Assembly: GCA_045578445.1 (NCBI GenBank)
Contig: JAZNKG010000007.1
Span: forward strand, 9,838 to 73,837
DNA length: 64,000 bases
Origin: Alphaproteobacteria bacterium
Lineage (GTDB): Bacteria; Pseudomonadota; Alphaproteobacteria; RF32; CAG-239
Direction of reading: 5' to 3'
How positions within the stretch are numbered: the stretch's first letter is position 1; the number at the start of each line of letters is the position of its first letter. The notes beneath the pieces are model-generated. The model was not told where the DNA came from, ran no database searches, and saw nothing but the letters and a program-made list of their open reading frames with translations. Positions 12,730-47,783 of the stretch are shown piece by piece. Made by a program: the position numbers and the translations under genes.

Positions 12730-13383
12730 CTAGTCAATCCAAGTTGAAATATTTTTAATAATTTTTTCTACAATTTCGTCTGTATTCATATTTTGTGGAG
12801 TTTCATCTAGCAACATTTCAACGTTAAAACAAGCTTTTACTTTAGCTAAAGATATGGCTTTTAATAATCCTGCTATTGCTAGAGCATCAAATACATTTGT
12901 TGTTTTATACGTATATACTGGCTCTGGGCTTCCTTCATATTTTATATTTAGAGTATTTTTTGCATAACTCCTTTGGATATCTAAATCTAAGTACCCTAGT
13001 TCTGATATACTTTTATATATTGCTGATGGACTTTCATTTAACCACTTTAATACATATTTTATAGCGATAGTTAAAGCAACATAGGGATAATAGTTTTGAC
13101 GAGCTTTATTTAAATCTTTTACCTTAAACACAGCATTTTCTAAGTTTGTTTCGTTTTTTATTGATTCTACAAACAAGGCTAGAGATAATTTGTTTAACGA
13201 AAAATTTTCATCTTTTATGTAAATTATGATGGCTTTTTCTTCTTGATACAAAGAAATATAGTTACGAGCTAGTTCTTTATAATTTTCCCAATTATAGTTA
13301 TTTTGTGATTTTATTTCTATTATAGGATATGTTTTACCACAGAACTCATTTCCCTCATTAGCGTCTAAAACTATTTCTATCAT
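12730..13383 (-). CDS. hypothetical protein, co-directional and 51 nt downstream of giant ORF 1
   Basis: 217-aa ORF with no motif recognised and no signal peptide. No terminator hairpin on either side. Confidence 0.55.
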   Translation of the reverse strand: MIEIVLDANEGNEFCGKTYPIIEIKSQNNYNWENYKELARNYISLYQEEKAIIIYIKDENFSLNKLSLALFVESIKNETNLENAVFKVKDLNKARQNYYPYVALTIAIKYVLKWLNESPSAIYKSISELGYLDLDIQRSYAKNTLNIKYEGSPEPVYTYKTTNVFDALAIAGLLKAISLAKVKACFNVEMLLDETPQNMNTDEIVEKIIKNISTWID

Positions 13384-13434: not shown

Positions 13435-16400
13435 TTACATATGTTTTCTGCACATTTTCAAGTACATCGCTTGTAAATTCCTACTAAGCTTATTACCTTT
13501 TCTTTCTTTGTCAATCTTTTCTTTGCGTTCTTTTTTACTTAATTTTTCTATTTCTTTTGTTTTGAAAGGATTATCTTCTGAAAACTGTAGTGCTTCATCT
13601 ATTTTTTTATTTTCTTCTTTTTGTTGAGTGATTGGTTTGGCTTGAAAAGTAATTTTTACTGTTTCTTCTTCTTTTTTACTAGTTCCAATCTTGGATACTT
13701 TTTTCTTTATTTGATTTATAGCTAGCTTAGCTAAAAACTTCTTATCTTTTAATATTCCACTTAAAACATTATCAGATATTGTGTGGTCAAGCATACCAGA
13801 ATTAGCTATTGATGATATTATTTGAACAAAATCATTTGCTGTTAAGCTTTTACTTTCTTTTATGACCTTACCATTGCTATCTTTTTCTTCTTTTTGATAT
13901 TCGCAAATATCAGCTAATGCAATACATCCTCTTTGAATGTCTGAAATATAAGAGGCATCTTTGCCTTGCTTTTCAAGTTTTTCAACCTCTCTAAACATTA
14001 CATCATTAATCTTTTCTCCGTTTATAACAGATTTTATAACTTCAGCATAGAAATGTGCTGATGATAATTTATCTTCTTCGCTAGGTGCTTTTCTTAAAGC
14101 TCCAGTATCAAAAATATTAACGTCTACGCTTGTTATTTTACCGTTTTCATCACGATTAACATTGAAATTTTGTTGTCCTGCATGTCTATCAATATCCCAA
14201 GCTCGACCGCTCAATAAAATTCCTAACTCTGTGGTCAAATATCCTATGGCTAATATTTTTTTCTCTTCTGGGGTACAATCTATTTTAGCTAAAGACTTAC
14301 CGTCTCCAAATTCCATTTCTTTATATCCTGAACCTGTTTCTTTATTATAATTCCAGTCTTTCCATGGACATAGACTAAGATTAAACTTAACACCATCAAC
14401 TTCTAGTTTATCTACCATATTGTAATTTTTATATGCTTCTACATATTGAGCATAGCCCATTGCAATATCAATTTCTGTCTTTGCGCTTTCTTCTGCTCTA
14501 GCTACAATTGTCTTTAAAACAGAGTATTTGTTATCTTTTTTAGATAATTCTTCTATGGTTCTGCCTATTTTTTTAAATTCATTATATGCATCTTTGGCGG
14601 CATTTTGACGCATCATTTGTAATACACTTTTTTGACCTTCTTGGTCCTCTACCTCAACTGATATATAAAATGAACCAGCACCAAGAACTTTGCCAACTCT
14701 TTTTATTGATTTTAACTTTTCTTCTGGAAGATTTTCTTTTAATTCTTCATATATCTCCCATCTATTCAATGTTGTAGCTCTATCTTTTAATACAGATAAA
14801 GGTTTTCTGATATCGTCTGGTAAATTAGGTATATTTGACAATGCTTGTCCGAACTTTACCCAAGCTGGACCATTGTTTGAGCAAAACTTTGCTAAAGCTT
14901 CACCGATTGACATATTTACACTTTGACCGTCTTCAGTTGGCTTTTTGGCTGCTAACATTGCGCCTAACATAAATCTTGCTTGATCTTTACGGTAATAGCC
15001 TGCTCCTAGTCCTCTTGCATATAAGCTACATAATATATTATTGGCATCTTGGTAATAGGGATCATCTTTTTCCATAAATTTATCTAGCACAACTTCAACT
15101 GCTTTATTAACATTATTTTTAGAGTAGTTGCCAAGTAATCTCTGCATTACAACAGCACCTTCCTCTATGCTCTTTCCCCTAAATTCGCTATGAAATATTT
15201 TTAAATCTTCATTTCTTATTTCATCTAAGCCTTTCTTTAAGTCATCTTTTTCTTCTTGTGTCATTGGTACAGGGGCTTCGCCACTTTGATGAGACATTAT
15301 CAGCGGATAAATATCGCATAGATTTGTGTGTAAATTTTTTTTGAAGTTATCAATACTTTCTTGGGTGCAAGGTTCTGTTAAAAAATTTATAACATCTAAA
15401 TTACTATTTGGACATACTGTTAAAAACTCATTTAGTGAACTTATCACTCTTGCAGAAGCTTCATTTTTGAACCCTAAATCATTATCATCTTCTTGGTGTT
15501 TAAGTGATATTGCAAATTTTTCAGATAAATCTTGTTGAGCTTCAATTTTGTTTGCAACTAATGCAAACAATTCGTTCTTTACAGTATCGCTCATAGTTTG
15601 ATTTGTAAAATTCATAAATGATATAATATTGTTATGGTATGATACTATATCTTCGTTGGTTACAGATGTACCATCGCTCTTTGTATTACCTAAAATAGGT
15701 TCTTTTCCGATACGGCTTGTATATATATTTGCATATTCCTCTTCAAAAAATTCACGTATTGGACGATAATCAACTGAATTTACAATATCAACTTTATCTG
15801 TAATTTTCACTCCTAAAAACTTATCATATTGTTTATATGGTATTTTTTTATCTTGAAGCATCATTATTGCTGCATTTTCTTTTTCTTCTTCTGGCAATTT
15901 TAAATATGATTGTTTCAATTGCTCTAAAAACTCAAATTTTATTTCGCTTTCTGAATCAAATAACGATTTATGAGACATTAAATCATATATTTCTTTTTGT
16001 TCATAAATACTTAAATCTTTAAAACCATGATTTAATATGTAATTTGAAATATAATTACAAAATTCCTTAGATGATGTTTTCACATATGTAATTTTAGGGT
16101 AAGACTCTAATAATTTTTTAATATCTACAGGTGGATTTTCTGGATTATTTAAGTATCGTAAAACTTCATATTCTGCAAATATATATTGTTCCATTCCTAA
16201 TAAAACCTTAGGAAGACCATTATAATCTCCATTACGATAATTTTTATCATTAATTGTTTCTTGAAGATTTGCATATAATTGTTCTGGATTTTTATCAGTT
16301 TCTTTTAATCCTAATTTAGCTCTACAGGTTTCATAATAAGGTATTTTTTTATTTACATAAATTGTTGCGGCATGAAAGTTATCCTTACTTCCTATTATAC

Positions 16401-33140: not shown

Positions 33141-33395
33141 ATGACAGAACATGATAAGGGACTTTGGGAAAAGACTAAGGATGTTAGTGCTGAGGCTTGG
33201 GATAAAACAAAAGATACCACTGCTAAAGCTTGGGACAAGACCAAGGAAGTAAGCGCAAAAGCATGGGATAAAACAAGAGATGCTTTTAGCGATGATGAAG
33301 ACGATAAAAAAGAAGATGAAATGGAAGATGTGGAACATCCTATGTATAATAAAGAACAAGGATGTACTCGCACTAGATTTGGAGGTAGATGGTAA
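33141..33395 (+). CDS. small hydrophilic protein with four 11-aa (A/L)W(D/E)KTKD-type repeats and an acidic tail
   Basis: SD AGGAGA 8 nt upstream and a strong terminator downstream. Repeats: LWEKTKDVSAE/AWDKTKDTTAK/AWDKTKEVSAK/AWDKTRDAFSD. Confidence 0.6.
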   Translation: MTEHDKGLWEKTKDVSAEAWDKTKDTTAKAWDKTKEVSAKAWDKTRDAFSDDEDDKKEDEMEDVEHPMYNKEQGCTRTRFGGRW

Positions 33396-33408
33396 TTATT
33401 AAAAAGAA

Positions 33409-33441
33409 ACAGACTTCCTTTTGAGGGGAAGTCTGTATTTT
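33409..33441. terminator. bidirectional terminator
   Basis: ACAGACTTCC-ttttgagg-GGAAGTCTGT followed by a T-run, between convergent small genes. Confidence 0.75.
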
Positions 33442-33463
33442 GCTTAAGCGATATTCTCGTTGT

Positions 33464-33709
33464 TTAAGCGAGGTTCTCGTTCATAGGAGCTAACTCCTCT
33501 ACATCACACCAATGATGGTGACCATGATGATGACCGTGGTGGTGATGATGATGATGGTGATGATATGGAGGTGGTGGTGGGAAGCTCATAAGAACGTCAT
33601 GTACTGCACACATTACTCCACAAGATGACGTCATCATAACTACTGAAGCGAGGATAATCGCTGTTTTAACAAATCTTTTCATAATAATCTTGAATCTAGG
33701 GTTAAACAT
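33464..33709 (-). CDS. small exported His/Pro-rich protein (possible lipoprotein)
   Basis: MKRFVKTAIILASVVMMTSSCG signal peptide with a possible lipobox, then PPPPPYHHHHHHHHHGHHHGHHHWC. His codons are mixed CAT/CAC. The start is ambiguous (33709 or 33682). Confidence 0.55.
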   Translation of the reverse strand: MFNPRFKIIMKRFVKTAIILASVVMMTSSCGVMCAVHDVLMSFPPPPPYHHHHHHHHHGHHHGHHHWCDVEELAPMNENLA

Positions 33710-33884
33710 ATCTATACATATCGGTGTTTATTATAGCATAAAAATTGTCTTTTGTCTAGTATTTTACATACTAATTTTTAAAAAAAGTTCTAAAAAATAA
33801 AAAAAAATATTTGCAAGATAAAAAAAATCAAAAAATAATTATTATGTAAATAGATGGTTTTATATTAGAAATAGGAGATGAAAA

Positions 33885-34250
33885 ATGAAGACAAGTAAAG
33901 TTTTAGCTGTAGCTGTATTAGGTGTTAGTTTTGCGATGGTTAGCAATGCTATTGCACAAAATGCCGGTGGTTTTAAAGGTCCAGGTATTGCAGATTCAAC
34001 AGTTGCTGATGCTTTAAAATTGCCTGATGATACTCCTGTTGTGTTAAAAGGTAAAATTGAGAAGAGTTTAGGTAATGAAAAATATCAATTTAATGACGGT
34101 ACAGGGGTTATTGTTGTTGAAATTGATAATGAAGATTGGAGAGGTGTAACTGTTACTCCAGAAAATACTATTGAGATTAAAGGAGAGATTGATAAAGAAA
34201 TGTTATCTGCTCCTGAAGTTGATGTTGATAGTGTAAGTGTTGTACAATAA
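33885..34250 (+). CDS. YgiW/YdeI-family periplasmic OB-fold (BOF) protein
   Basis: Signal peptide, then GGFKGPG...TVADALKLPDDTPVVLKGKIEKSLGNEKYQFNDGTGVIVVEIDNEDW, a typical BOF pattern. SD AGGAGA. Confidence 0.8.
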   Translation: MKTSKVLAVAVLGVSFAMVSNAIAQNAGGFKGPGIADSTVADALKLPDDTPVVLKGKIEKSLGNEKYQFNDGTGVIVVEIDNEDWRGVTVTPENTIEIKGEIDKEMLSAPEVDVDSVSVVQ

Positions 34251-34273
34251 TTTTTCATTACAACTTTTAAGAA

Positions 34274-34299
34274 AGGCGAAGAAAACTTCGCCTTTTTTT
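34274..34299. terminator. bidirectional terminator
   Basis: AGGCGAAG-aaaa-CTTCGCCT followed by T7. Confidence 0.75.
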
Positions 34300-41542: not shown

Positions 41543-41581
41543 TATTTCATATTTAGCTTTTTAATGTGTGGGAGAAGAGCT

Positions 41582-42097
41582 ATGAAGAAATTGATTATAA
41601 CACTAATGGGAATCGGGCTATTTGTTACTAATGCAAATGCATCATTAACTTATTCTCATTCAAAATATGGGTATCAACGTAGTGCTATGGCTAATGTTAG
41701 TGCAACAATTGTGAGGCCTGTGTCTGCAGAAGTTCGTCAAGATTTGGATTTAGGCATGTTGCAGGCAAGAAGTAAAGGCTTTGTCAGTATAGACAAAAAC
41801 AATCAAAGATATGCTGAAGGATTAGAACTTGCAACAAGCAAACCGCATACTGGAGTTGTTAACATAAGTGGACCAAGTGGTCAGATGGTAACTGTTAATG
41901 TGCCAGAAGTAAGATTTCATGGAAATATAGATAAAATCGCAGAATTTAAGCCAAGTGTGAGCCATAATGGTAGAGCTATTGCTCTTAATTCCAGTGACGG
42001 GAAAGCTGAGATTAGAATTGGTGGCATATTAAAATTAAATGACGTACCAGAGAGTGGAGCTCATAAAGGATATTATATTGTGCAGATGTCTTACTAG
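41582..42097 (+). CDS. secreted pilin-like subunit (DUF4402/SCPU-like)
   Basis: Signal peptide MKKLIITLMGIGLFVTNANA, SATIVRPVS...DLDLG, and a C-terminal G.Y.G.Y.V.MSY beta-strand shared with the neighbouring subunits. SD GGGAGAAGAG. Confidence 0.55.
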   Translation: MKKLIITLMGIGLFVTNANASLTYSHSKYGYQRSAMANVSATIVRPVSAEVRQDLDLGMLQARSKGFVSIDKNNQRYAEGLELATSKPHTGVVNISGPSGQMVTVNVPEVRFHGNIDKIAEFKPSVSHNGRAIALNSSDGKAEIRIGGILKLNDVPESGAHKGYYIVQMSY

Positions 42098-42099
42098 AC

Positions 42100-42131
42100 A
42101 AAAAAAACACCTCTAATGAGGTGTTTTTTTA
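42100..42131. terminator. bidirectional terminator
   Basis: A-run-ACACCTC-taat-GAGGTGT-T7 between convergent pilin-like genes. Confidence 0.75.
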
Positions 42132-42153
42132 TTGTATAAACAAGAAGCAAAAA

Positions 42154-42654
42154 TTAGTATGACATTGTCAAAGTAATTTCACCAGTATAAACGCCTGATG
42201 GTTGATTTGCTTTGATATGTAAGTCAGCACCAACTTTTACCTGATCACTACCATCTGTAATTTTTTGTTGTGTTTGAGAATAAGCACTATCATCAACTAA
42301 CAAAGTAAAATTATTTAATTCCATAGTATTTACACCATTACTTAATACGGTTTCAGCAACACTAATAGTGTAAGGTGTACCTGTATCACCTGTAATAGTA
42401 AATTCTGCAGCTTTTACAGCATCACCACGTGCACTAGTTACATCAGATAATTCGCCATTAGGAGCCAACTTAGCTGTTTGTGCCTGAGGAGAACTAACAA
42501 TTGTACCAAAATTCATATCTTGTGTTTTCGTTACACTACCTGCTCCTACGATAGTTGCTGTTACTGTTGCAGTTTCACTTTTTGAAGCTGCAAACGAGTT
42601 ATTAGCGCACAAAACTAAAACAGAAAATACTGTTAATAATAATGCTTTTTTCAT
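42154..42654 (-). CDS. secreted pilin-like subunit (DUF4402/SCPU-like)
   Basis: Signal peptide MKKALLLTVFSVLVLCANNSFA, then ATVTATIVGAGSVTKTQDMNFGTIV...AAEFTITGDTGTPYTISV...GVYTGEITLTMSY. Confidence 0.62.
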   Translation of the reverse strand: MKKALLLTVFSVLVLCANNSFAASKSETATVTATIVGAGSVTKTQDMNFGTIVSSPQAQTAKLAPNGELSDVTSARGDAVKAAEFTITGDTGTPYTISVAETVLSNGVNTMELNNFTLLVDDSAYSQTQQKITDGSDQVKVGADLHIKANQPSGVYTGEITLTMSY

Positions 42655-42761
42655 ATCAATCCCCTTTTCATAAAAACTATATTATTTGTCTAAAGACTAG
42701 AATAAAAGTTATTAACATTTTACTAATAAAAAAAACTTTTTTTACCAAAGCTAAGTTATTG

Positions 42762-42777
42762 AAAAAAAAAAAAAAAA
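42762..42777. repeat. A16 homopolymer tract in the divergent pilus intergenic region
   Basis: 16 consecutive A residues counted directly. A T8 run lies at 42842-42849. Confidence 0.95.
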
Positions 42778-42894
42778 CAGAAATTTTTTCTACAGGTGAA
42801 AAAATAGCAAAATTTCACCTAATTTTATTGCTAAATATGTGTTTTTTTTGTACTTTTTTATAGTAAGATATTGGATATTTTTAAAGGACTGGGC

Positions 42895-43899
42895 ATGAAA
42901 CGCAATCTTATTATTAACCTATTGTTTTTATTTGGTTTTATTCTATTACCTATTAAATATGTAAATTCAGCTGATTATACAACTACTGGCTCTATTGATT
43001 TTGGAGTTATTATGCAAAATGCAATTCCTTCTATTATACCTGTTACATCCGATGGTTTAAGAGATGAATCTGGTACATATGGGGTATACAGGGCGCAAAA
43101 TCCATCAGTTTCCAATACAATTACATTTACAACTACTGGTAATATCATTGTTGGTGAAAGAATAATCATTACAAACAATATGAATACTGAAGAGTTTAAC
43201 ATTGATGGTTGTTCTCATTCCTTTTCAAATGTTTCAACACAAAATAATAATTTCTTTATGTCTTCATCATCCTATAGTTTGCCATTTTCTTTAACATTAA
43301 CTATATCTAACTTTTGTACACCTGATAAAAATTATACTGGTCAATTTTATATTCAATACCGTACGCAAACTTGTATTTTAGGTGGTCTTTTGGGATGTTA
43401 TGATAACGAAGGAATAAATGAAGTTCCTTTCCAATATTCATTTAGGATTGAAGAGCCTTTAGGAGCTGATGAAATTGAGGCGTTAAATTTTGGGGCAATT
43501 ATGCCAATTTTTGACGGTGCTGGAACAGTAACCATTGCTCCTGAGGATGAATCAGTTACTGTAACCGGCGATATTAAATATTTATATTCTGGTTATTCGC
43601 GTGGAATTTATCAAATTTATGGCATCGGAAACCGTATGGTTAATATAACTATGCCAGATAGCGTTATTATAACAAATGTTTCGAATGATAGTGGCGATAC
43701 AATGGTTGTAAATAACTTTAGGGTTTCATCTACATATAATTACACGCAAACCAATGATGGTGCCAAAGTAGAAATTCCCTTAAACGATTTGAGTTTTGAC
43801 AACTATTCTAACTTTTTTGTTGGAGCAACATTAAATGTTGGAGCCGGAGTATCTGAGGGGCAATACCGTGGAGAATATACAATTTATTTAAGTTATTAG
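42895..43899 (+). CDS. two-domain pilin-like subunit (candidate tip/adhesin subunit)
   Basis: Signal peptide, then two tandem pilin-like modules (DFGVIMQN... and LNFGAIMP...VTVTGD...YQIYG...GQYRGEYTIYLSY). SD AAAGGA before ATG 42895. Confidence 0.55.
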   Translation: MKRNLIINLLFLFGFILLPIKYVNSADYTTTGSIDFGVIMQNAIPSIIPVTSDGLRDESGTYGVYRAQNPSVSNTITFTTTGNIIVGERIIITNNMNTEEFNIDGCSHSFSNVSTQNNNFFMSSSSYSLPFSLTLTISNFCTPDKNYTGQFYIQYRTQTCILGGLLGCYDNEGINEVPFQYSFRIEEPLGADEIEALNFGAIMPIFDGAGTVTIAPEDESVTVTGDIKYLYSGYSRGIYQIYGIGNRMVNITMPDSVIITNVSNDSGDTMVVNNFRVSSTYNYTQTNDGAKVEIPLNDLSFDNYSNFFVGATLNVGAGVSEGQYRGEYTIYLSY

Positions 43900-43927
43900 T
43901 TTGATAGAAAAAAGGAGTAATTGATTT

Positions 43928-44701
43928 ATGAAAATAAAACTAAAATATTTAACACTTTTATTGTTATTAATAGCAAATGTGGCAAAAGCCAATATTTCTA
44001 TTTATCCGTTTAGTGTTGATTTTAAAGATGGGGCAAGAAAACGTGTGCAAAGTATACGCATTATTAATTCATCCAATGAAATACAGACTTATCGTGTGAG
44101 TATGGTTGATTTTGCGCAAGATGAGAAAGGAAAATTAGTAGAAATTAAAGGAGCAGAAAATTCTGCAACTCCTTATGTAACTTTTTCTCCTCGTCAATTT
44201 ACCCTAAAGCCCAAAGATGTGCAAACTGTGAATGTGGCTAGACGTAGCTTAGCAAAAGCTAAAGATGGAGAATATGTTTCTCACTTAAAAATCAGTGAAG
44301 TGAATTTAGGTGCTCCTAAATTGAAAAACGAAAAAGAAAACTCTGACGCTATTTCTATGAAAATAGATGTGTTGTTTGCAGTTACAATTCCTGTAACTGT
44401 TGAAAAAGGTGATAATTTGGTAGCTAAAACTTCTTTGGTTAGTTGGAAGAAGATTGGTAGTGACAAACTAAATATCACTCTTAAAAGAGAAGGAAATAAA
44501 TCTTCTCGTGTAAATGCTTATGTTTTAGATAAAAAGAATCAGGAACTAGGCAAAGTTAAAGGTATTAAAATCTATATGACGACTGATATCCTTAATATAG
44601 ATATACCTTTGAACAAAAATGTAACTAATGAGAATGCTTTATTGAAACTAGAAGATGCACAGTCTGAGAAAGAAATACTTAGACAGCCAATTAAACTATA
44701 A
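43928..44701 (+). CDS. periplasmic pilus chaperone (PapD-like fold)
   Basis: Signal peptide, NISIYPFSVDF....R.QSIRIINSSNEIQTYRVSM and two beta-sandwich-sized halves. Sits between the subunit and usher-like genes. SD AAGGAG. Confidence 0.68.
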   Translation: MKIKLKYLTLLLLLIANVAKANISIYPFSVDFKDGARKRVQSIRIINSSNEIQTYRVSMVDFAQDEKGKLVEIKGAENSATPYVTFSPRQFTLKPKDVQTVNVARRSLAKAKDGEYVSHLKISEVNLGAPKLKNEKENSDAISMKIDVLFAVTIPVTVEKGDNLVAKTSLVSWKKIGSDKLNITLKREGNKSSRVNAYVLDKKNQELGKVKGIKIYMTTDILNIDIPLNKNVTNENALLKLEDAQSEKEILRQPIKL

Positions 44702-47700
44702 ATTTATTATTTGTTTATGGACTGTTTTTATTTTAGTTCTGCCACTTGTGGCTAGAGCTCAGACAGTTATAAGCTTTTCTGACGAAAATAATACTGTTAA
44801 TCAACTAGAAGAAAGTGAAGATATTTTCAATTTCTCTGGTGATTTATTGATTTTAGAGCCTGTTATTCAGGGATTTAACCTTAGCGACTATGCTTATGTT
44901 TCTCAAACTGACGGCAAAGAATATATTGCCTTAAGCCAAATGGCCCAATATCTTGGTATTAAGTATATTAAAAACCCTAATAATACTACCAAACTATGGT
45001 ATGCAGATAATGAAGATGTTGTATACTTTATTGATTTTGTAAACCGTAAAGTTATTTTGACCGATAATAAAGGTTATATAAAAGAAGATAAATTTTGGTT
45101 TAGAGATTATGATGTTGATGTTATTGATGAAACTATTTTCTTTAGTGTAGGTTTTTGGAGAACTCTTTTAGAGGCAGATATTGAAATTGATGAACTCAAT
45201 ATGCAACTTGTTATTAAAAGAGAAAAAGACTTCCCTACTATTGCAAAAATGCGTGCAGAGAAAAAACGTAATAATCAAGGTTTCCGTGAATTTAGTAAAG
45301 ATAGTATTTCCGATTATGATTTTGACGATAGATTAATAGCAGAACCTGTACTTGATGTACAACTTGGTAAAGGCTGGGGACATAATAAAGGCGGTAGAAC
45401 TTATAATAGCGACAACTATGCTGTTAATCTTGCAATGATTGCAGGAGGACTTGATGTTAATACTTATGTTAGTGGCAACTCTTCTAATGATAGAAAACCT
45501 ACGGTTAGAATTAGCGGTAGTAGAACTTTCTTAGATGAACCTGAAAATGCTTTTAACTTAAAAACATTAAAAGTTGGTGATATAAGTGGTATTAGTCAGT
45601 CTTATTTTGCTAATGCTGGATATGGTCGCGGTGTGGCCTTGTCATCATTTAAAAACTTAGTAATGTCTGCTGATAAGACTATTGATTTGACTGGTCCGTT
45701 AACTCCAGGGTGGGAAGTTGAACTTTATTGGAATGAACAGCTTATTGGATTCAGACAAAGTGGTATTAATGGCGAATATAACTTTAATGATATTCCAGTT
45801 TCTTATGGTTTGAATACATTTAAGTTAGTATTTTATGGGCCCTATGGAGAGACACGAACTGAATATGAAAGATATTATTCTGGTACTAGTCCAGTGAAGA
45901 CTGGCGAATTTGGATACAATATTTCTGCTTATCAGCCATTTAGATATTTGGTAGAAGACAATAGAACGTTTCAATATGATGGCTCTGATACTCCTATTAT
46001 TGATATGACTGGATATTACGGTGCTACTGATGATTTGACATTGATGGGTGGTTTTACTCAAACTCCTAGTGCTGAAGATAGCTTTGAGACACAATACTTT
46101 GGTATGGCTGGTGCGCAGATGTCTATGTCTGGTAGTTCCATCCAATATAACTTAGAACAAAATTTAGATACTGCAAAATTAGGTCATCATTTAGAATGGC
46201 AGGGTGATGTTTATATTGGTAATATCTATGCCGGATATGATAAATATAATGGAATACATTCTCCTAACTCTTTATACTCTGATGAATATTTGGATGAGCA
46301 ATATGAAGCAAGACTTTCTGGTATATTACCTTGGAATGTACCTTACTATTTAAGTTATCGTACAGGTAAATTGGAAAGTGGTGATATTACTTTTGAAAAT
46401 ATTTCTGCCAGACTTTCTAAGAGATTGACTAACGGTTTGAACTTAACTCTTGAAGATAGCTACTATGGTTATGGCTCAGGTAGAGGTTATTCTAATGTTG
46501 TTCGTACAGGATTGTATAAATGGTGGAATCTATTTTCTACTGAAACTTGGGCCACTTATAGAACTGATCCTGATCCTGAACTTACAGAAGTTCAAGCGAG
46601 AATTGACTGGCGAGCTGGCAGGAACACTTATGTTACAGGAAGATGGACCAGAAATATGCTTAATGATATGGACTACTTCTCTGTTTCAGGAGGTCATGTT
46701 TTTGACTTCGGAGGCTTAACTGCCACTTTAGAGAGTGATAGAGATTTGAACTTAAGTACTTATTTAAATTATAATATCAGCTTTGCTAGAGAACCTAAAT
46801 CTTTTGGAATTGTTACAAATGCTAATTCAAAATTAAGTTCTAGTGGCACAATGTTTGTTAAAGTTATTGACGAAGAAGGTAATCCTGTACCAGAAGTGGG
46901 GCTTAATGCTAACGGATTGGACAAACAAGTTTATACTGATGAAAAAGGTACTGCTATTTTGGCTGACCTACAAACTTACGAACGTACAATTCTTAGAGTT
47001 GATATGGAATCCTTGATTGATATTTCTTTACAACCAGAAGAAGAAATCAAAAAAGTTGTGCTACGCCCTGGCACTATTAGAACTGTTGATTTGAAATTTA
47101 TTCATAAAGGAGCTGTCGAAGGTAAGATTGCTAACCCTGAAGGTAAGCGTTTGTTTGGTTATCAGATTTCTGCGATTGATAAAGATGAGAAGGAAATCGC
47201 TCAAACTTTTGCTGATTTAGATGGTTATTTTATTTTAGATGGTGTGCCTTATGGTACTTATAATATCGTTATTTCTAAAGAAGGTAGCATATTAACAGAG
47301 CTTGTTGATGTTAAAGTTGATGATGTGTCTGTTTATTTGGAAGAAGAAATTGTTGTTGATACTGATGCTATTAACTTCTTTGAAAATATTGATACTGAAA
47401 ATGAAACAAATCGCTTTGTTGAAGAACACGAAAAAGGGTTTAATAATGAAGAATATATGAATAATACATTCCCTATTGATATTGAAAAGGCTGTTATAGA
47501 ACCAGAAGAACATCAACCTATCATTACCATTGAAGAAATTGAGAAAGATATTTTTGTAAATCCTAATGCAGAAGTGTTTAACTCTGTGGCATCTCAACAA
47601 TCTTATGATAGATTTATTGCTGTTGAAAAGCCTAAATATGATGATGTATCTATGGAAAGTATAGAAAAAGAAATCTTTGGTATTAGTGACAAAGATGCTG

Positions 47701-47783
47701 AAATTATTGATAATATTCAAAATGAACTTGATGCTAATATTGCGTTGAAAGAATTGATGGATACTGTTGATAGTATCGAATAA
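44655..47783 (+). CDS. usher-like outer-membrane assembly protein with C-terminal CarboxypepD_reg-like domains and an acidic tail
   Basis: 1042 aa with a signal peptide ...LVLPLVARA and a long Gly/aromatic-rich region of alternating beta-strand character. Two VKVIDEEGNP.../GKIANPEGKR...GYFILDGVPYGTYNIVISKEG modules follow. The usher call rests on synteny. The start is uncertain; the ATG 44655 start overlaps the chaperone gene by 47 nt. Confidence 0.5.
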   Translation: MHSLRKKYLDSQLNYKFIICLWTVFILVLPLVARAQTVISFSDENNTVNQLEESEDIFNFSGDLLILEPVIQGFNLSDYAYVSQTDGKEYIALSQMAQYLGIKYIKNPNNTTKLWYADNEDVVYFIDFVNRKVILTDNKGYIKEDKFWFRDYDVDVIDETIFFSVGFWRTLLEADIEIDELNMQLVIKREKDFPTIAKMRAEKKRNNQGFREFSKDSISDYDFDDRLIAEPVLDVQLGKGWGHNKGGRTYNSDNYAVNLAMIAGGLDVNTYVSGNSSNDRKPTVRISGSRTFLDEPENAFNLKTLKVGDISGISQSYFANAGYGRGVALSSFKNLVMSADKTIDLTGPLTPGWEVELYWNEQLIGFRQSGINGEYNFNDIPVSYGLNTFKLVFYGPYGETRTEYERYYSGTSPVKTGEFGYNISAYQPFRYLVEDNRTFQYDGSDTPIIDMTGYYGATDDLTLMGGFTQTPSAEDSFETQYFGMAGAQMSMSGSSIQYNLEQNLDTAKLGHHLEWQGDVYIGNIYAGYDKYNGIHSPNSLYSDEYLDEQYEARLSGILPWNVPYYLSYRTGKLESGDITFENISARLSKRLTNGLNLTLEDSYYGYGSGRGYSNVVRTGLYKWWNLFSTETWATYRTDPDPELTEVQARIDWRAGRNTYVTGRWTRNMLNDMDYFSVSGGHVFDFGGLTATLESDRDLNLSTYLNYNISFAREPKSFGIVTNANSKLSSSGTMFVKVIDEEGNPVPEVGLNANGLDKQVYTDEKGTAILADLQTYERTILRVDMESLIDISLQPEEEIKKVVLRPGTIRTVDLKFIHKGAVEGKIANPEGKRLFGYQISAIDKDEKEIAQTFADLDGYFILDGVPYGTYNIVISKEGSILTELVDVKVDDVSVYLEEEIVVDTDAINFFENIDTENETNRFVEEHEKGFNNEEYMNNTFPIDIEKAVIEPEEHQPIITIEEIEKDIFVNPNAEVFNSVASQQSYDRFIAVEKPKYDDVSMESIEKEIFGISDKDAEIIDNIQNELDANIALKELMDTVDSIE

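Follow-up and report, generated by a model that had tools for sequence, protein, structure and literature searches.

A stretch of 64,000 nucleotides from an alphaproteobacterial contig (JAZNKG010000007.1, positions 9,838–73,837 of the forward strand; hereafter, the window) was analyzed with a focus on a gene whose giant product is referred to below as Q1. In this protein of about 1,900 amino acids (aa), an N-terminal zinc metallopeptidase of the M48 family is joined to a C-terminal domain with the protein-kinase-like fold of the UbiB/ABC1 family, and the identities of both domains are close to certain. The component folds are known, while the architecture and the subfamily are new. Residue numbers follow the 1888-aa translation from the first in-frame ATG (19101). 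Coordinates of the features are collected in Table 1.

An M48 peptidase and a UbiB-like domain in one polypeptide

An earlier note on this DNA, made by reading the sequence, had assigned the N-terminal part to an M48-type protease on the basis of the strings NAWIMP, VIAHELGHFFVNE, NETLADKHAIDCLYYMGKNP and HGSPSSRLQAMEDY, all of which are present in the translation. This assignment was borne out by profile and structural comparisons. The Pfam family PF01435 (Peptidase_M48) matched aa 113–175 of Q1 with 29.6 bits (gathering cut-off 20.3), as well as 17 of 17 members of clade 1 of the family and five of five distant members. When the N-terminal family profile was compared with the PDB, matches to 3C37 (E = 1.3e-16) and BepA (about 3e-8) were obtained; the former consisted of two stretches, one covering the strand and the HExxH helix and the other running from ExxAD through HPxxxxR. 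The AlphaFold model of aa 1–340 had a predicted local distance difference test score (pLDDT) of 85 and a predicted template modeling score (pTM) of 0.82. Its best PDB matches in Foldseek were 3C37 (3.4e-5), BepA (about 1e-3) and ZMPSTE24 (1.6e-2), and no other protease family ranked ahead of the M48 structures in this search.

The N-terminal ~300 aa were aligned for 20 proteins drawn from three clades; the invariant residues were F112, F114, A124, H157, E158, G160, H161, E178, D182, P196, H226 and R232. Among 171 full-length members, H157, E158, H161, E178 and H226 are each 97% conserved. N123-A124, located in the NAF/NAW strand, and H226...R232 are likewise conserved in the family and align with both 3C37 and BepA. 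According to the profile alignment, E178 corresponds to E201 of BepA, the third zinc ligand, and H226 to H246 of BepA, an auto-inhibitory fourth zinc ligand. The predicted M48 active site is complete and comprises the zinc ligands H157, H161 and E178, the general base E158 and the histidine H226. All sequence and predicted-fold criteria agree that the N-terminal ~250 aa of Q1 are a genuine M48 peptidase.

The closest M48 relatives are Geobacter Q74D82 (PDB 3C37) and E. coli BepA/YfgC (6AIT, 6SAR), with HtpX and Ste24/ZMPSTE24 being more distant. Q1 shares with 3C37 and BepA the motif order NAF/NAW, HExxH, ExxAD and (T)H(P)xxxxR. As the earlier note had remarked, the spacer between HExxH and ExxAD is unusually short, approximately 13–17 aa in Q1 versus 48–55 aa in 3C37 and BepA, so that ~35–45 residues present in these two proteins are missing from the Q1 family. 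Unlike BepA-type enzymes, Q1 has no signal peptide, tetratricopeptide repeat domain or transmembrane (TM) segment. In addition, its peptidase domain represents the N-terminal 13% of a ~1,900-aa protein of cytoplasmic type, whereas the known M48 enzymes are periplasmic or membrane proteins of 250–490 aa. A thermolysin-like (M4) or ImmA/IrrE-like class, raised by the short HExxH-E spacer, was also considered; both profile and fold favour M48.

The C-terminal domain was placed by a different route. The Pfam family ABC1 (PF03109) gave no match in Q1 at E ≤ 1 and matched only two of 15 family members, weakly (best E = 5e-4). The TIGR01982 model gave a partial match to Q1 (E = 2.6e-10, 39.5 bits), far under its cut-off of 487.55. 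Searches of PDB sequences with the whole protein, the whole-family profile and the C-domain profile found no UbiB relative, COQ8A included; the sole matches, to thermolysin and HDAC8, were weak and regarded as noise. It took predicted structures and the comparison of profiles with profiles to place the domain.

The AlphaFold model of aa 1290–1810 (pLDDT 81, pTM 0.72) retrieved UbiB-family structures at all Foldseek ranks from 1 to 12 (MSMEG_1954, Rv3197 and COQ8A; E from 1.5e-7 to 3.5e-5), and ordinary kinases appeared in the list only from rank 13. In the hhalign program, the family alignment was compared with nine bona fide UbiB/ABC1 genes (470–590 aa) taken from loci L049–L075, which gave a probability of 99.35% and E = 6.5e-21 over 272 columns. 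This alignment pairs KFGQ with the KFGQ of true UbiB, LGAGSF with the nucleotide loop IAAAS, E1543 with the E of ELDF, D1638-R-H-A-G-Q1643 with D-x-H-x-G-N, and D1665-T-G with D-F-G. The UbiB/ABC1 (KxGQ) assignment in the earlier note thus stands in fold and profile comparison, though not in Pfam. The strings it quoted for this region (GPAWVKFGQALSN..., LGAGSFYISV, EIDIAMGYAQYVEA, WDIDRHAGQQNF and NIFDTGA) all occur in the translation, and the codons it gave for HELGH (H157–H161) and KFGQ (K1416–Q1419) are those listed in Table 1.

In 185 family domains, D1636, D1638, H1640 and D1665 are 100% conserved, Q1419 is found in 183 (99%) and K1416 in 176 (95%), and E1543 is 95% conserved. The position of Q1643 is occupied by Gln in 93% and by Asn in a further 6%. 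The canonical beta3 lysine falls on Q1495, a position that varies among A, S, Q, K, T and R, and the alphaC glutamate falls on G1549. As judged from these alignments, the domain keeps its phosphoryl-transfer core together with the UbiB signature but has lost the classical Lys-Glu pair. By its predicted fold and profile, the C-terminal ~500 aa region is a divergent UbiB/ABC1 fold descended from UbiB/ABC1.

The closest known proteins are E. coli UbiB, human COQ8A (4PED, 5I35, 7UDQ) and two mycobacterial members of the family, Rv3197 of M. tuberculosis and MSMEG_1954 of M. smegmatis (5YJZ, 7CYR). Q1 resembles them in the protein-kinase-like fold with an N-terminal helical extension bearing KxGQ, in the catalytic loop D-x-H-x-G-(N/Q) and in the DFG aspartate. 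It differs in the absence of the beta3 Lys and alphaC Glu (VAVK; ExDxxEA), in the nucleotide loop (GAGS instead of AAAS of UbiB), in the replacement of the Mg-binding Asn by Gln, in the lack of a TM anchor and in its failure to match PF03109 or to approach the TIGR01982 cut-off. Moreover, UbiB proteins are stand-alone proteins of ~400–650 aa, whereas the domain described here forms the C-terminal third of proteins of 1,400–2,900 aa, and the lineages of the Q1 family include quinone-less bacteria. Because it does not reach the curated thresholds, has neither the Lys-Glu pair nor a TM anchor and is not a stand-alone protein of UbiB size, the domain is called a divergent UbiB-like subfamily and not UbiB.

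As for the ~1,100-aa region between the two domains, the earlier note had recognised no motif in it, and Pfam indeed assigns no family there: beyond Peptidase_M48, no Pfam match was found in Q1, the 17 clade 1 members or the five distant members. Its first part (aa ~250–1000), poorly conserved and rich in gaps, is colinear between the paralogous clades. Its second part, the module at aa ~1001–1399, is common to Q1 and its paralogue, contains Q1189 (97% conserved in the full-length members), and is helical in the part that was modeled (1290–1399).

The single open reading frame (ORF) expected from the earlier note was found uninterrupted on the minus strand at 13435..19101 (1888 codons). It contains two in-frame ATG codons, at 19101 and 19095. 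A ribosome-binding site, AGGGAG, precedes the second by 7 nt and the first by only 1 nt, and the homologues start with MAxYGYD; for these two reasons the second ATG is preferred as the probable start, giving a predicted product of ~1,886 aa. A frame of 5.66 kb at the guanine-cytosine content of the window (~30%) cannot be due to chance, the more so as full-length homologues with 38–95% identity exist.

The predicted absence of a signal peptide and TM helices also held. Hydropathy analysis of the whole protein revealed no signal peptide or hydrophobic N-terminus, the N-terminus being hydrophilic, and since the highest Kyte-Doolittle mean over 19 residues is only 1.23, under the usual TM level, Q1 has no predicted TM helix. 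Overall the protein is very acidic (net charge -74), but at its C-terminus the net charge of the final 40 aa is +9 (+8 in the paralogue). A positive C-terminal tail is found in 79% of 159 family members, whose median whole-protein net charge is -26. Among the 45 ORFs of the window, only three have a tail charge of at least +8, and Q1 and its paralogue are two of them.

Table 1. Positions in the window of the Q1 gene, its predicted domains and motifs, and the gene of the paralogue Q2
Feature	Position	Strand	Basis
Q1, giant gene including stop codon	13435..19095	-	ORF listing, start inspection, full-length homologues
AGGGAG, ribosome-binding site of Q1	19103..19108	-	Sequence reading
M48 (BepA/3C37-like) zinc-metallopeptidase core, aa ~100-245	18367..18804	-	Pfam, PDB profile, AlphaFold, Foldseek
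HELGH zinc-binding/catalytic motif (H157, E158, H161)	18619..18633	-	Family conservation
E178-TLA-D182, ExxAD helix	18556..18570	-	Alignment with BepA; family conservation
H226-GSPSS-R232, equivalent of M48 THPxxxxR	18406..18426	-	Alignment with BepA; family conservation
Gap-rich, poorly conserved centre, aa ~250-1000	16102..18354	-	Conservation, Pfam, clade alignment
Conserved module before the kinase fold, aa ~1001-1399	14905..16101	-	BLASTP Q1/Q2; conservation; part-model
UbiB/ABC1-like protein-kinase-like domain, aa ~1400-1800	13702..14904	-	AlphaFold, Foldseek, hhalign, TIGR01982 partial match
KFGQ, UbiB signature KxGQ (K1416/Q1419)	14845..14856	-	Conservation; hhalign
Q1495 at the canonical beta3 (VAIK) lysine position	14617..14619	-	Model, conservation, hhalign
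D1636-I-D1638-R-H1640-A-G-Q1643, catalytic loop similar to UbiB HADxHxGN	14173..14196	-	Conservation; hhalign
D1665-T-G, DFG equivalent	14101..14109	-	Conservation; hhalign
Lys/Arg-rich C-terminal tail, aa 1811-1888	13438..13671	-	Charge analysis
Paralogue Q2, 1657 aa, N-terminal M48 and C-terminal UbiB-like	21248..26221	-	BLASTP, profile alignment

The family, its hosts and its genomic surroundings

The paralogue Q2 is encoded ~2 kb upstream of Q1 on the same strand. In BLASTP, the two proteins share 31% identity over ~800 C-terminal residues and, in addition, the M48 block. Relatives retrieved by word-indexed searching numbered 17 for Q1 and 35 for Q2. When the C-domain profile was used as a hidden Markov model in an exhaustive search, 1,627 representatives had E ≤ 1e-3, and for 472 of them E was 1e-30 or lower; among the best 150 matches listed, nearly all were 1,400–2,900 aa long with the UbiB-like domain in the C-terminal third. 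Both domains are present in 157 of 193 retrieved proteins, and the remainder are mostly short fragments. The profiles of clades 1 and 2 are colinear over 1,441 columns (E = 7e-127), which makes the giant layout as a whole ancestral. Taken from these comparisons, the fusion of M48 with the UbiB-like domain is obligate and ancient.

The databases label the family "M48 family metalloprotease" or "hypothetical"; the orthologues of Q2 are those to which NCBI gives the former name. Cluster look-ups for distant members led mostly to metagenomic sequences, with a few named "M48 family metalloprotease [Rickettsiales bacterium]". The earlier note knew of no described family that pairs the UbiB fold with a protease. 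No publication on an M48–UbiB fusion was found in the literature searched, so this part stands; the architecture is not a one-off, however, being shared by the paralogue in the window, with the C-terminal domain present in at least 472 sequence clusters at the stricter threshold. Full-length relatives, for which the note had suggested a homology search, do exist in alphaproteobacterial lineages.

Some members carry extra C-terminal sequence beyond the UbiB-like domain: P0012, P0014 and P0015 (~2480–2491 aa), P0136 (2488 aa), P0144 (2864 aa) and P0115 (2222 aa), with extensions of 700–1,200 aa across such proteins. At locus L079 (8278–23503), three giant members of 1741, 1937 and 1703 aa are encoded within 15 kb, which points to local paralogue expansion. 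The genome that contains this locus is of a free-living type with LuxI/LuxR and a 2-oxoacid dehydrogenase.

Strong matches in species-representative genomes came from gut, rumen or termite metagenome-assembled genomes (MAGs) labeled Alphaproteobacteria, Candidatus Enterousia or Rickettsiales, several of which have two family loci. Ca. Enterousia belongs to the order Rs-D84, for which genomes of ~1 Mb or less, the lack of both a tricarboxylic acid (TCA) cycle and a respiratory chain, and a possible dependence on partners have been described (PMC12306168). To judge from the matches, the organism of the window probably falls near this group. More distant members are located on contigs of 0.26–2.2 Mb together with two-component systems, extracytoplasmic function (ECF) sigma factors and LuxI/LuxR. 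Five gene-bearing contigs (L005, L036, L040, L044 and L048) are labeled as Acetobacter, Muribaculaceae or Lactobacillus MAGs; these look mis-binned or mislabeled, because the distribution is otherwise alphaproteobacterial.

The window is ordinary chromosome, and the Q1 gene looks more like a housekeeping than an accessory gene. Its neighbours include gpsA and genes for NAD salvage, CTP synthase, triosephosphate isomerase, trigger factor, glycosyltransferases and resistance-nodulation-division (RND) efflux. Across 48 related loci no conserved gene neighbour was found, and thus operon context gives no functional clue.

Between Q1 and Q2, on the opposite strand, lies a gene for a GtrII-like membrane glucosyltransferase (19595–21244 (+); PF14264, E = 1.4e-10), along with a small ORF at 19207–19527 (+) and a terminator-like hairpin at 19552–19569. 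Directly downstream of Q1, a 217-aa ORF (12730–13383 (-)) has no Pfam family and a weak PADLOC match to PDC-M39A (E = 0.0049); in L005, a copy with 33% identity to it is encoded ~7 kb away from the Q1 homologue and on the opposite strand. Farther away, the region 41564–47783 of the window has the appearance of a locus for the assembly of surface fibres or pilus-type structures. It encodes three DUF4402 proteins, a protein whose fn3-like match is weak and stays under the cut-off, and a 1042-aa protein that is very acidic (net charge -72) and contains a CarboxypepD_reg domain. The region 32921–34297 (~1.4 kb) contains no ORF of at least 150 aa on either strand and no tRNA or Rfam family.

Possible function of the protein

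The reading tentatively favoured here, with rather less than even confidence, is that Q1 works at the membrane as a metalloprotease gated by nucleotide. The UbiB-like module would bind and hydrolyse Mg-nucleotide in the manner of COQ8/UbiB, with no protein phosphorylation. A hydrophobic or anionic-lipid ligand at the membrane's inner face might set off its ATPase conformational cycle, and the basic tail may tether the protein there through anionic lipid in place of the canonical UbiB TM anchor. The cycle would pass through the ~1,100-residue linker and open or position the auto-inhibited, His-plugged M48 protease. The whole protein would then serve membrane-proximal protein processing or quality control, and the two ancient paralogues possibly cooperate.

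Several observations are consistent with this proposal. Both active sites are strongly constrained (97% for the M48 residues and 95–100% for the UbiB-like ones), and Ca. Enterousia retains one or two copies of the gene. The position that corresponds to the basic tail of Q1 is occupied in E. coli UbiB by C-terminal TM helices. A conserved ATPase activity has been described for COQ8/UbiB, with the KxGQ Gln positioning the water molecule that is the candidate nucleophile, an active site from which proteins are sterically excluded, and activation by cardiolipin membranes (bioRxiv 10.1101/149823).

A functional analogy is offered by FtsH, in which an AAA+ ATPase and an M41 HExxH protease, that is, a nucleotide module and an HExxH protease, are likewise combined in one polypeptide. 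FtsH acts at the membrane in protein quality control. The similarity goes no further than function: the module in Q1 is kinase-like and not AAA+, the protease belongs to M48 and not to M41, and ~1,100 aa separate the two modules of Q1, whose coupling is hypothetical. That a UbiB-type kinase-fold ATPase, and not an AAA+ one, gates an M48 protease and so represents an unrecognised class of nucleotide-driven proteases is an unlikely extension of this reading.

Other data weigh against a gated membrane protease. The beta3 Lys and alphaC Glu are absent, so nucleotide binding is only predicted, and the central ~750 aa are poorly conserved. Two features, namely the presence of two or three divergent paralogues in a genome, in some cases as a cluster, and the basic disordered C-terminus on an acidic giant protein, would fit an exported effector at least equally well.

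The earlier note had called a secreted or host-targeting effector and a self-processing enzyme plausible; both ideas are speculative. An exported effector is the main rival reading, since the acidic Q1 protein ends in a basic tail. On this account, which we regard as possible but on the whole doubtful, Q1 would be a multi-domain effector or toxin that enters a partner, host, protist or competitor cell and acts on proteins or lipids there; examples of a route are a VirB/D4-type type IV secretion system that reads the positively charged disordered C-terminus, or a type I secretion system (T1SS). The giant size, the lack of a signal peptide and TM helices, and the rarity of such tail charges among the window ORFs compared with their frequency in the family would all suit export, as would the occurrence of divergent paralogues, sometimes in tandem, and the retention of the gene in reduced-genome lineages with proposed partner dependence. 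Among the effectors of Legionella and Rickettsiales, enzymes with an atypical kinase fold are frequent. One relative is encoded 2.5–10 kb from genes for an AprE-type membrane-fusion protein and ABC transporters. However, secretion machinery genes were found neither in the window nor as conserved neighbours of the homologues, and the family is represented as well in genomes of a free-living type, where two-component systems and quorum sensing abound. The literature searched contained no relevant paper on secreted effectors with a UbiB-like kinase fold or on secretion systems of Rs-D84. The layout of 1,400–1,900 aa is colinear and conserved and not modularly shuffled, and Pfam detected no eukaryote-like domains. 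The active sites of UbiB proteins have, moreover, been reported as closed to protein substrates (bioRxiv 10.1101/149823).

The transporter genes just mentioned belong to locus L077 (1–7552), which encodes the AprE-type membrane-fusion protein, two ABC exporter genes and a 965-aa protein without annotation upstream of the distant member P0201. This cluster could be a T1SS and is not recurrent elsewhere.

A further reading concerns the UbiB-like domain, which could be a non-catalytic pseudo-enzyme, that is, a ligand- or lipid-binding or scaffold module that steers the M48 protease with no ATP hydrolysis. The loss of the beta3 Lys, with its position now variable, and of its alphaC Glu partner would agree with this, as would the failure of Pfam ABC1 to recognise the domain and of the PDB sequence profile to retrieve COQ8A. 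Nevertheless, the catalytic residues D1636, D1638, H1640 and D1665 are fully conserved and KxGQ and the Mg-binding Q/N are near-invariant; such conservation marks an active site for phosphoryl transfer and not a degenerate one, which makes a pseudo-enzyme quite improbable. The KxGQ Lys could substitute for the beta3 Lys.

Anti-phage or abortive-infection defence, in which a sensor region would activate the protease and kinase as effectors upon infection, is very unlikely. Some defence systems use kinases and proteases, and Q1 is a large multi-enzyme product of a single gene that includes a protease. On the other hand, the genes lie amid housekeeping genes and not in a defence island, mobile-element genes are not adjacent, and the presence of two ancient paralogues throughout a lineage suggests vertical inheritance of the family. 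PADLOC-DB 2.0 gave no match for Q1 or Q2 at E ≤ 0.01, and a defence-system identity for Q1 was rejected on this ground.

It is scarcely credible that Q1 is an ordinary quinone-biosynthesis UbiB with an incidental protease fusion: KxGQ and the catalytic loop are UbiB-like, but the TIGR01982 score (39.5 bits) falls far short of the cut-off (487), TM helices and the Lys-Glu pair are lacking, and the Ca. Enterousia/Rs-D84 genomes that bear the family are reported to be without respiratory chains and a TCA cycle, which speaks, if indirectly, against quinone biosynthesis as its role there.

Significance

Nothing in the current annotation of the family ("M48 family metalloprotease" or "hypothetical") reflects the kinase-fold domain. 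The biochemical job of UbiB/ABC1/ADCK proteins is unclear, with only weak ATPase activity and lipid activation established (bioRxiv 10.1101/149823). In the present family, the UbiB fold occurs in a predicted soluble form, without the Lys-Glu pair, fused to an intact M48 domain in hundreds of sequence clusters. This hints that UbiB-type domains can serve as nucleotide or lipid switches for proteases and makes the family a tractable quinone-independent model for the chemistry of the UbiB fold. If Q1 and its relatives are nucleotide-driven proteases, they would represent a "Rosetta-stone" fusion that points to a partnership between UbiB/ADCK and M48 proteins (Oma1, HtpX, BepA) in membrane homeostasis.

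The reduced-genome gut and rumen Alphaproteobacteria (Rs-D84, Ca. Enterousia and relatives) devote ~1% of a genome of ~1 Mb to one or two of these genes. Should the proteins turn out to be effectors that are exported, they would be leading candidates for the factors behind the proposed partner-dependent lifestyle of these bacteria.

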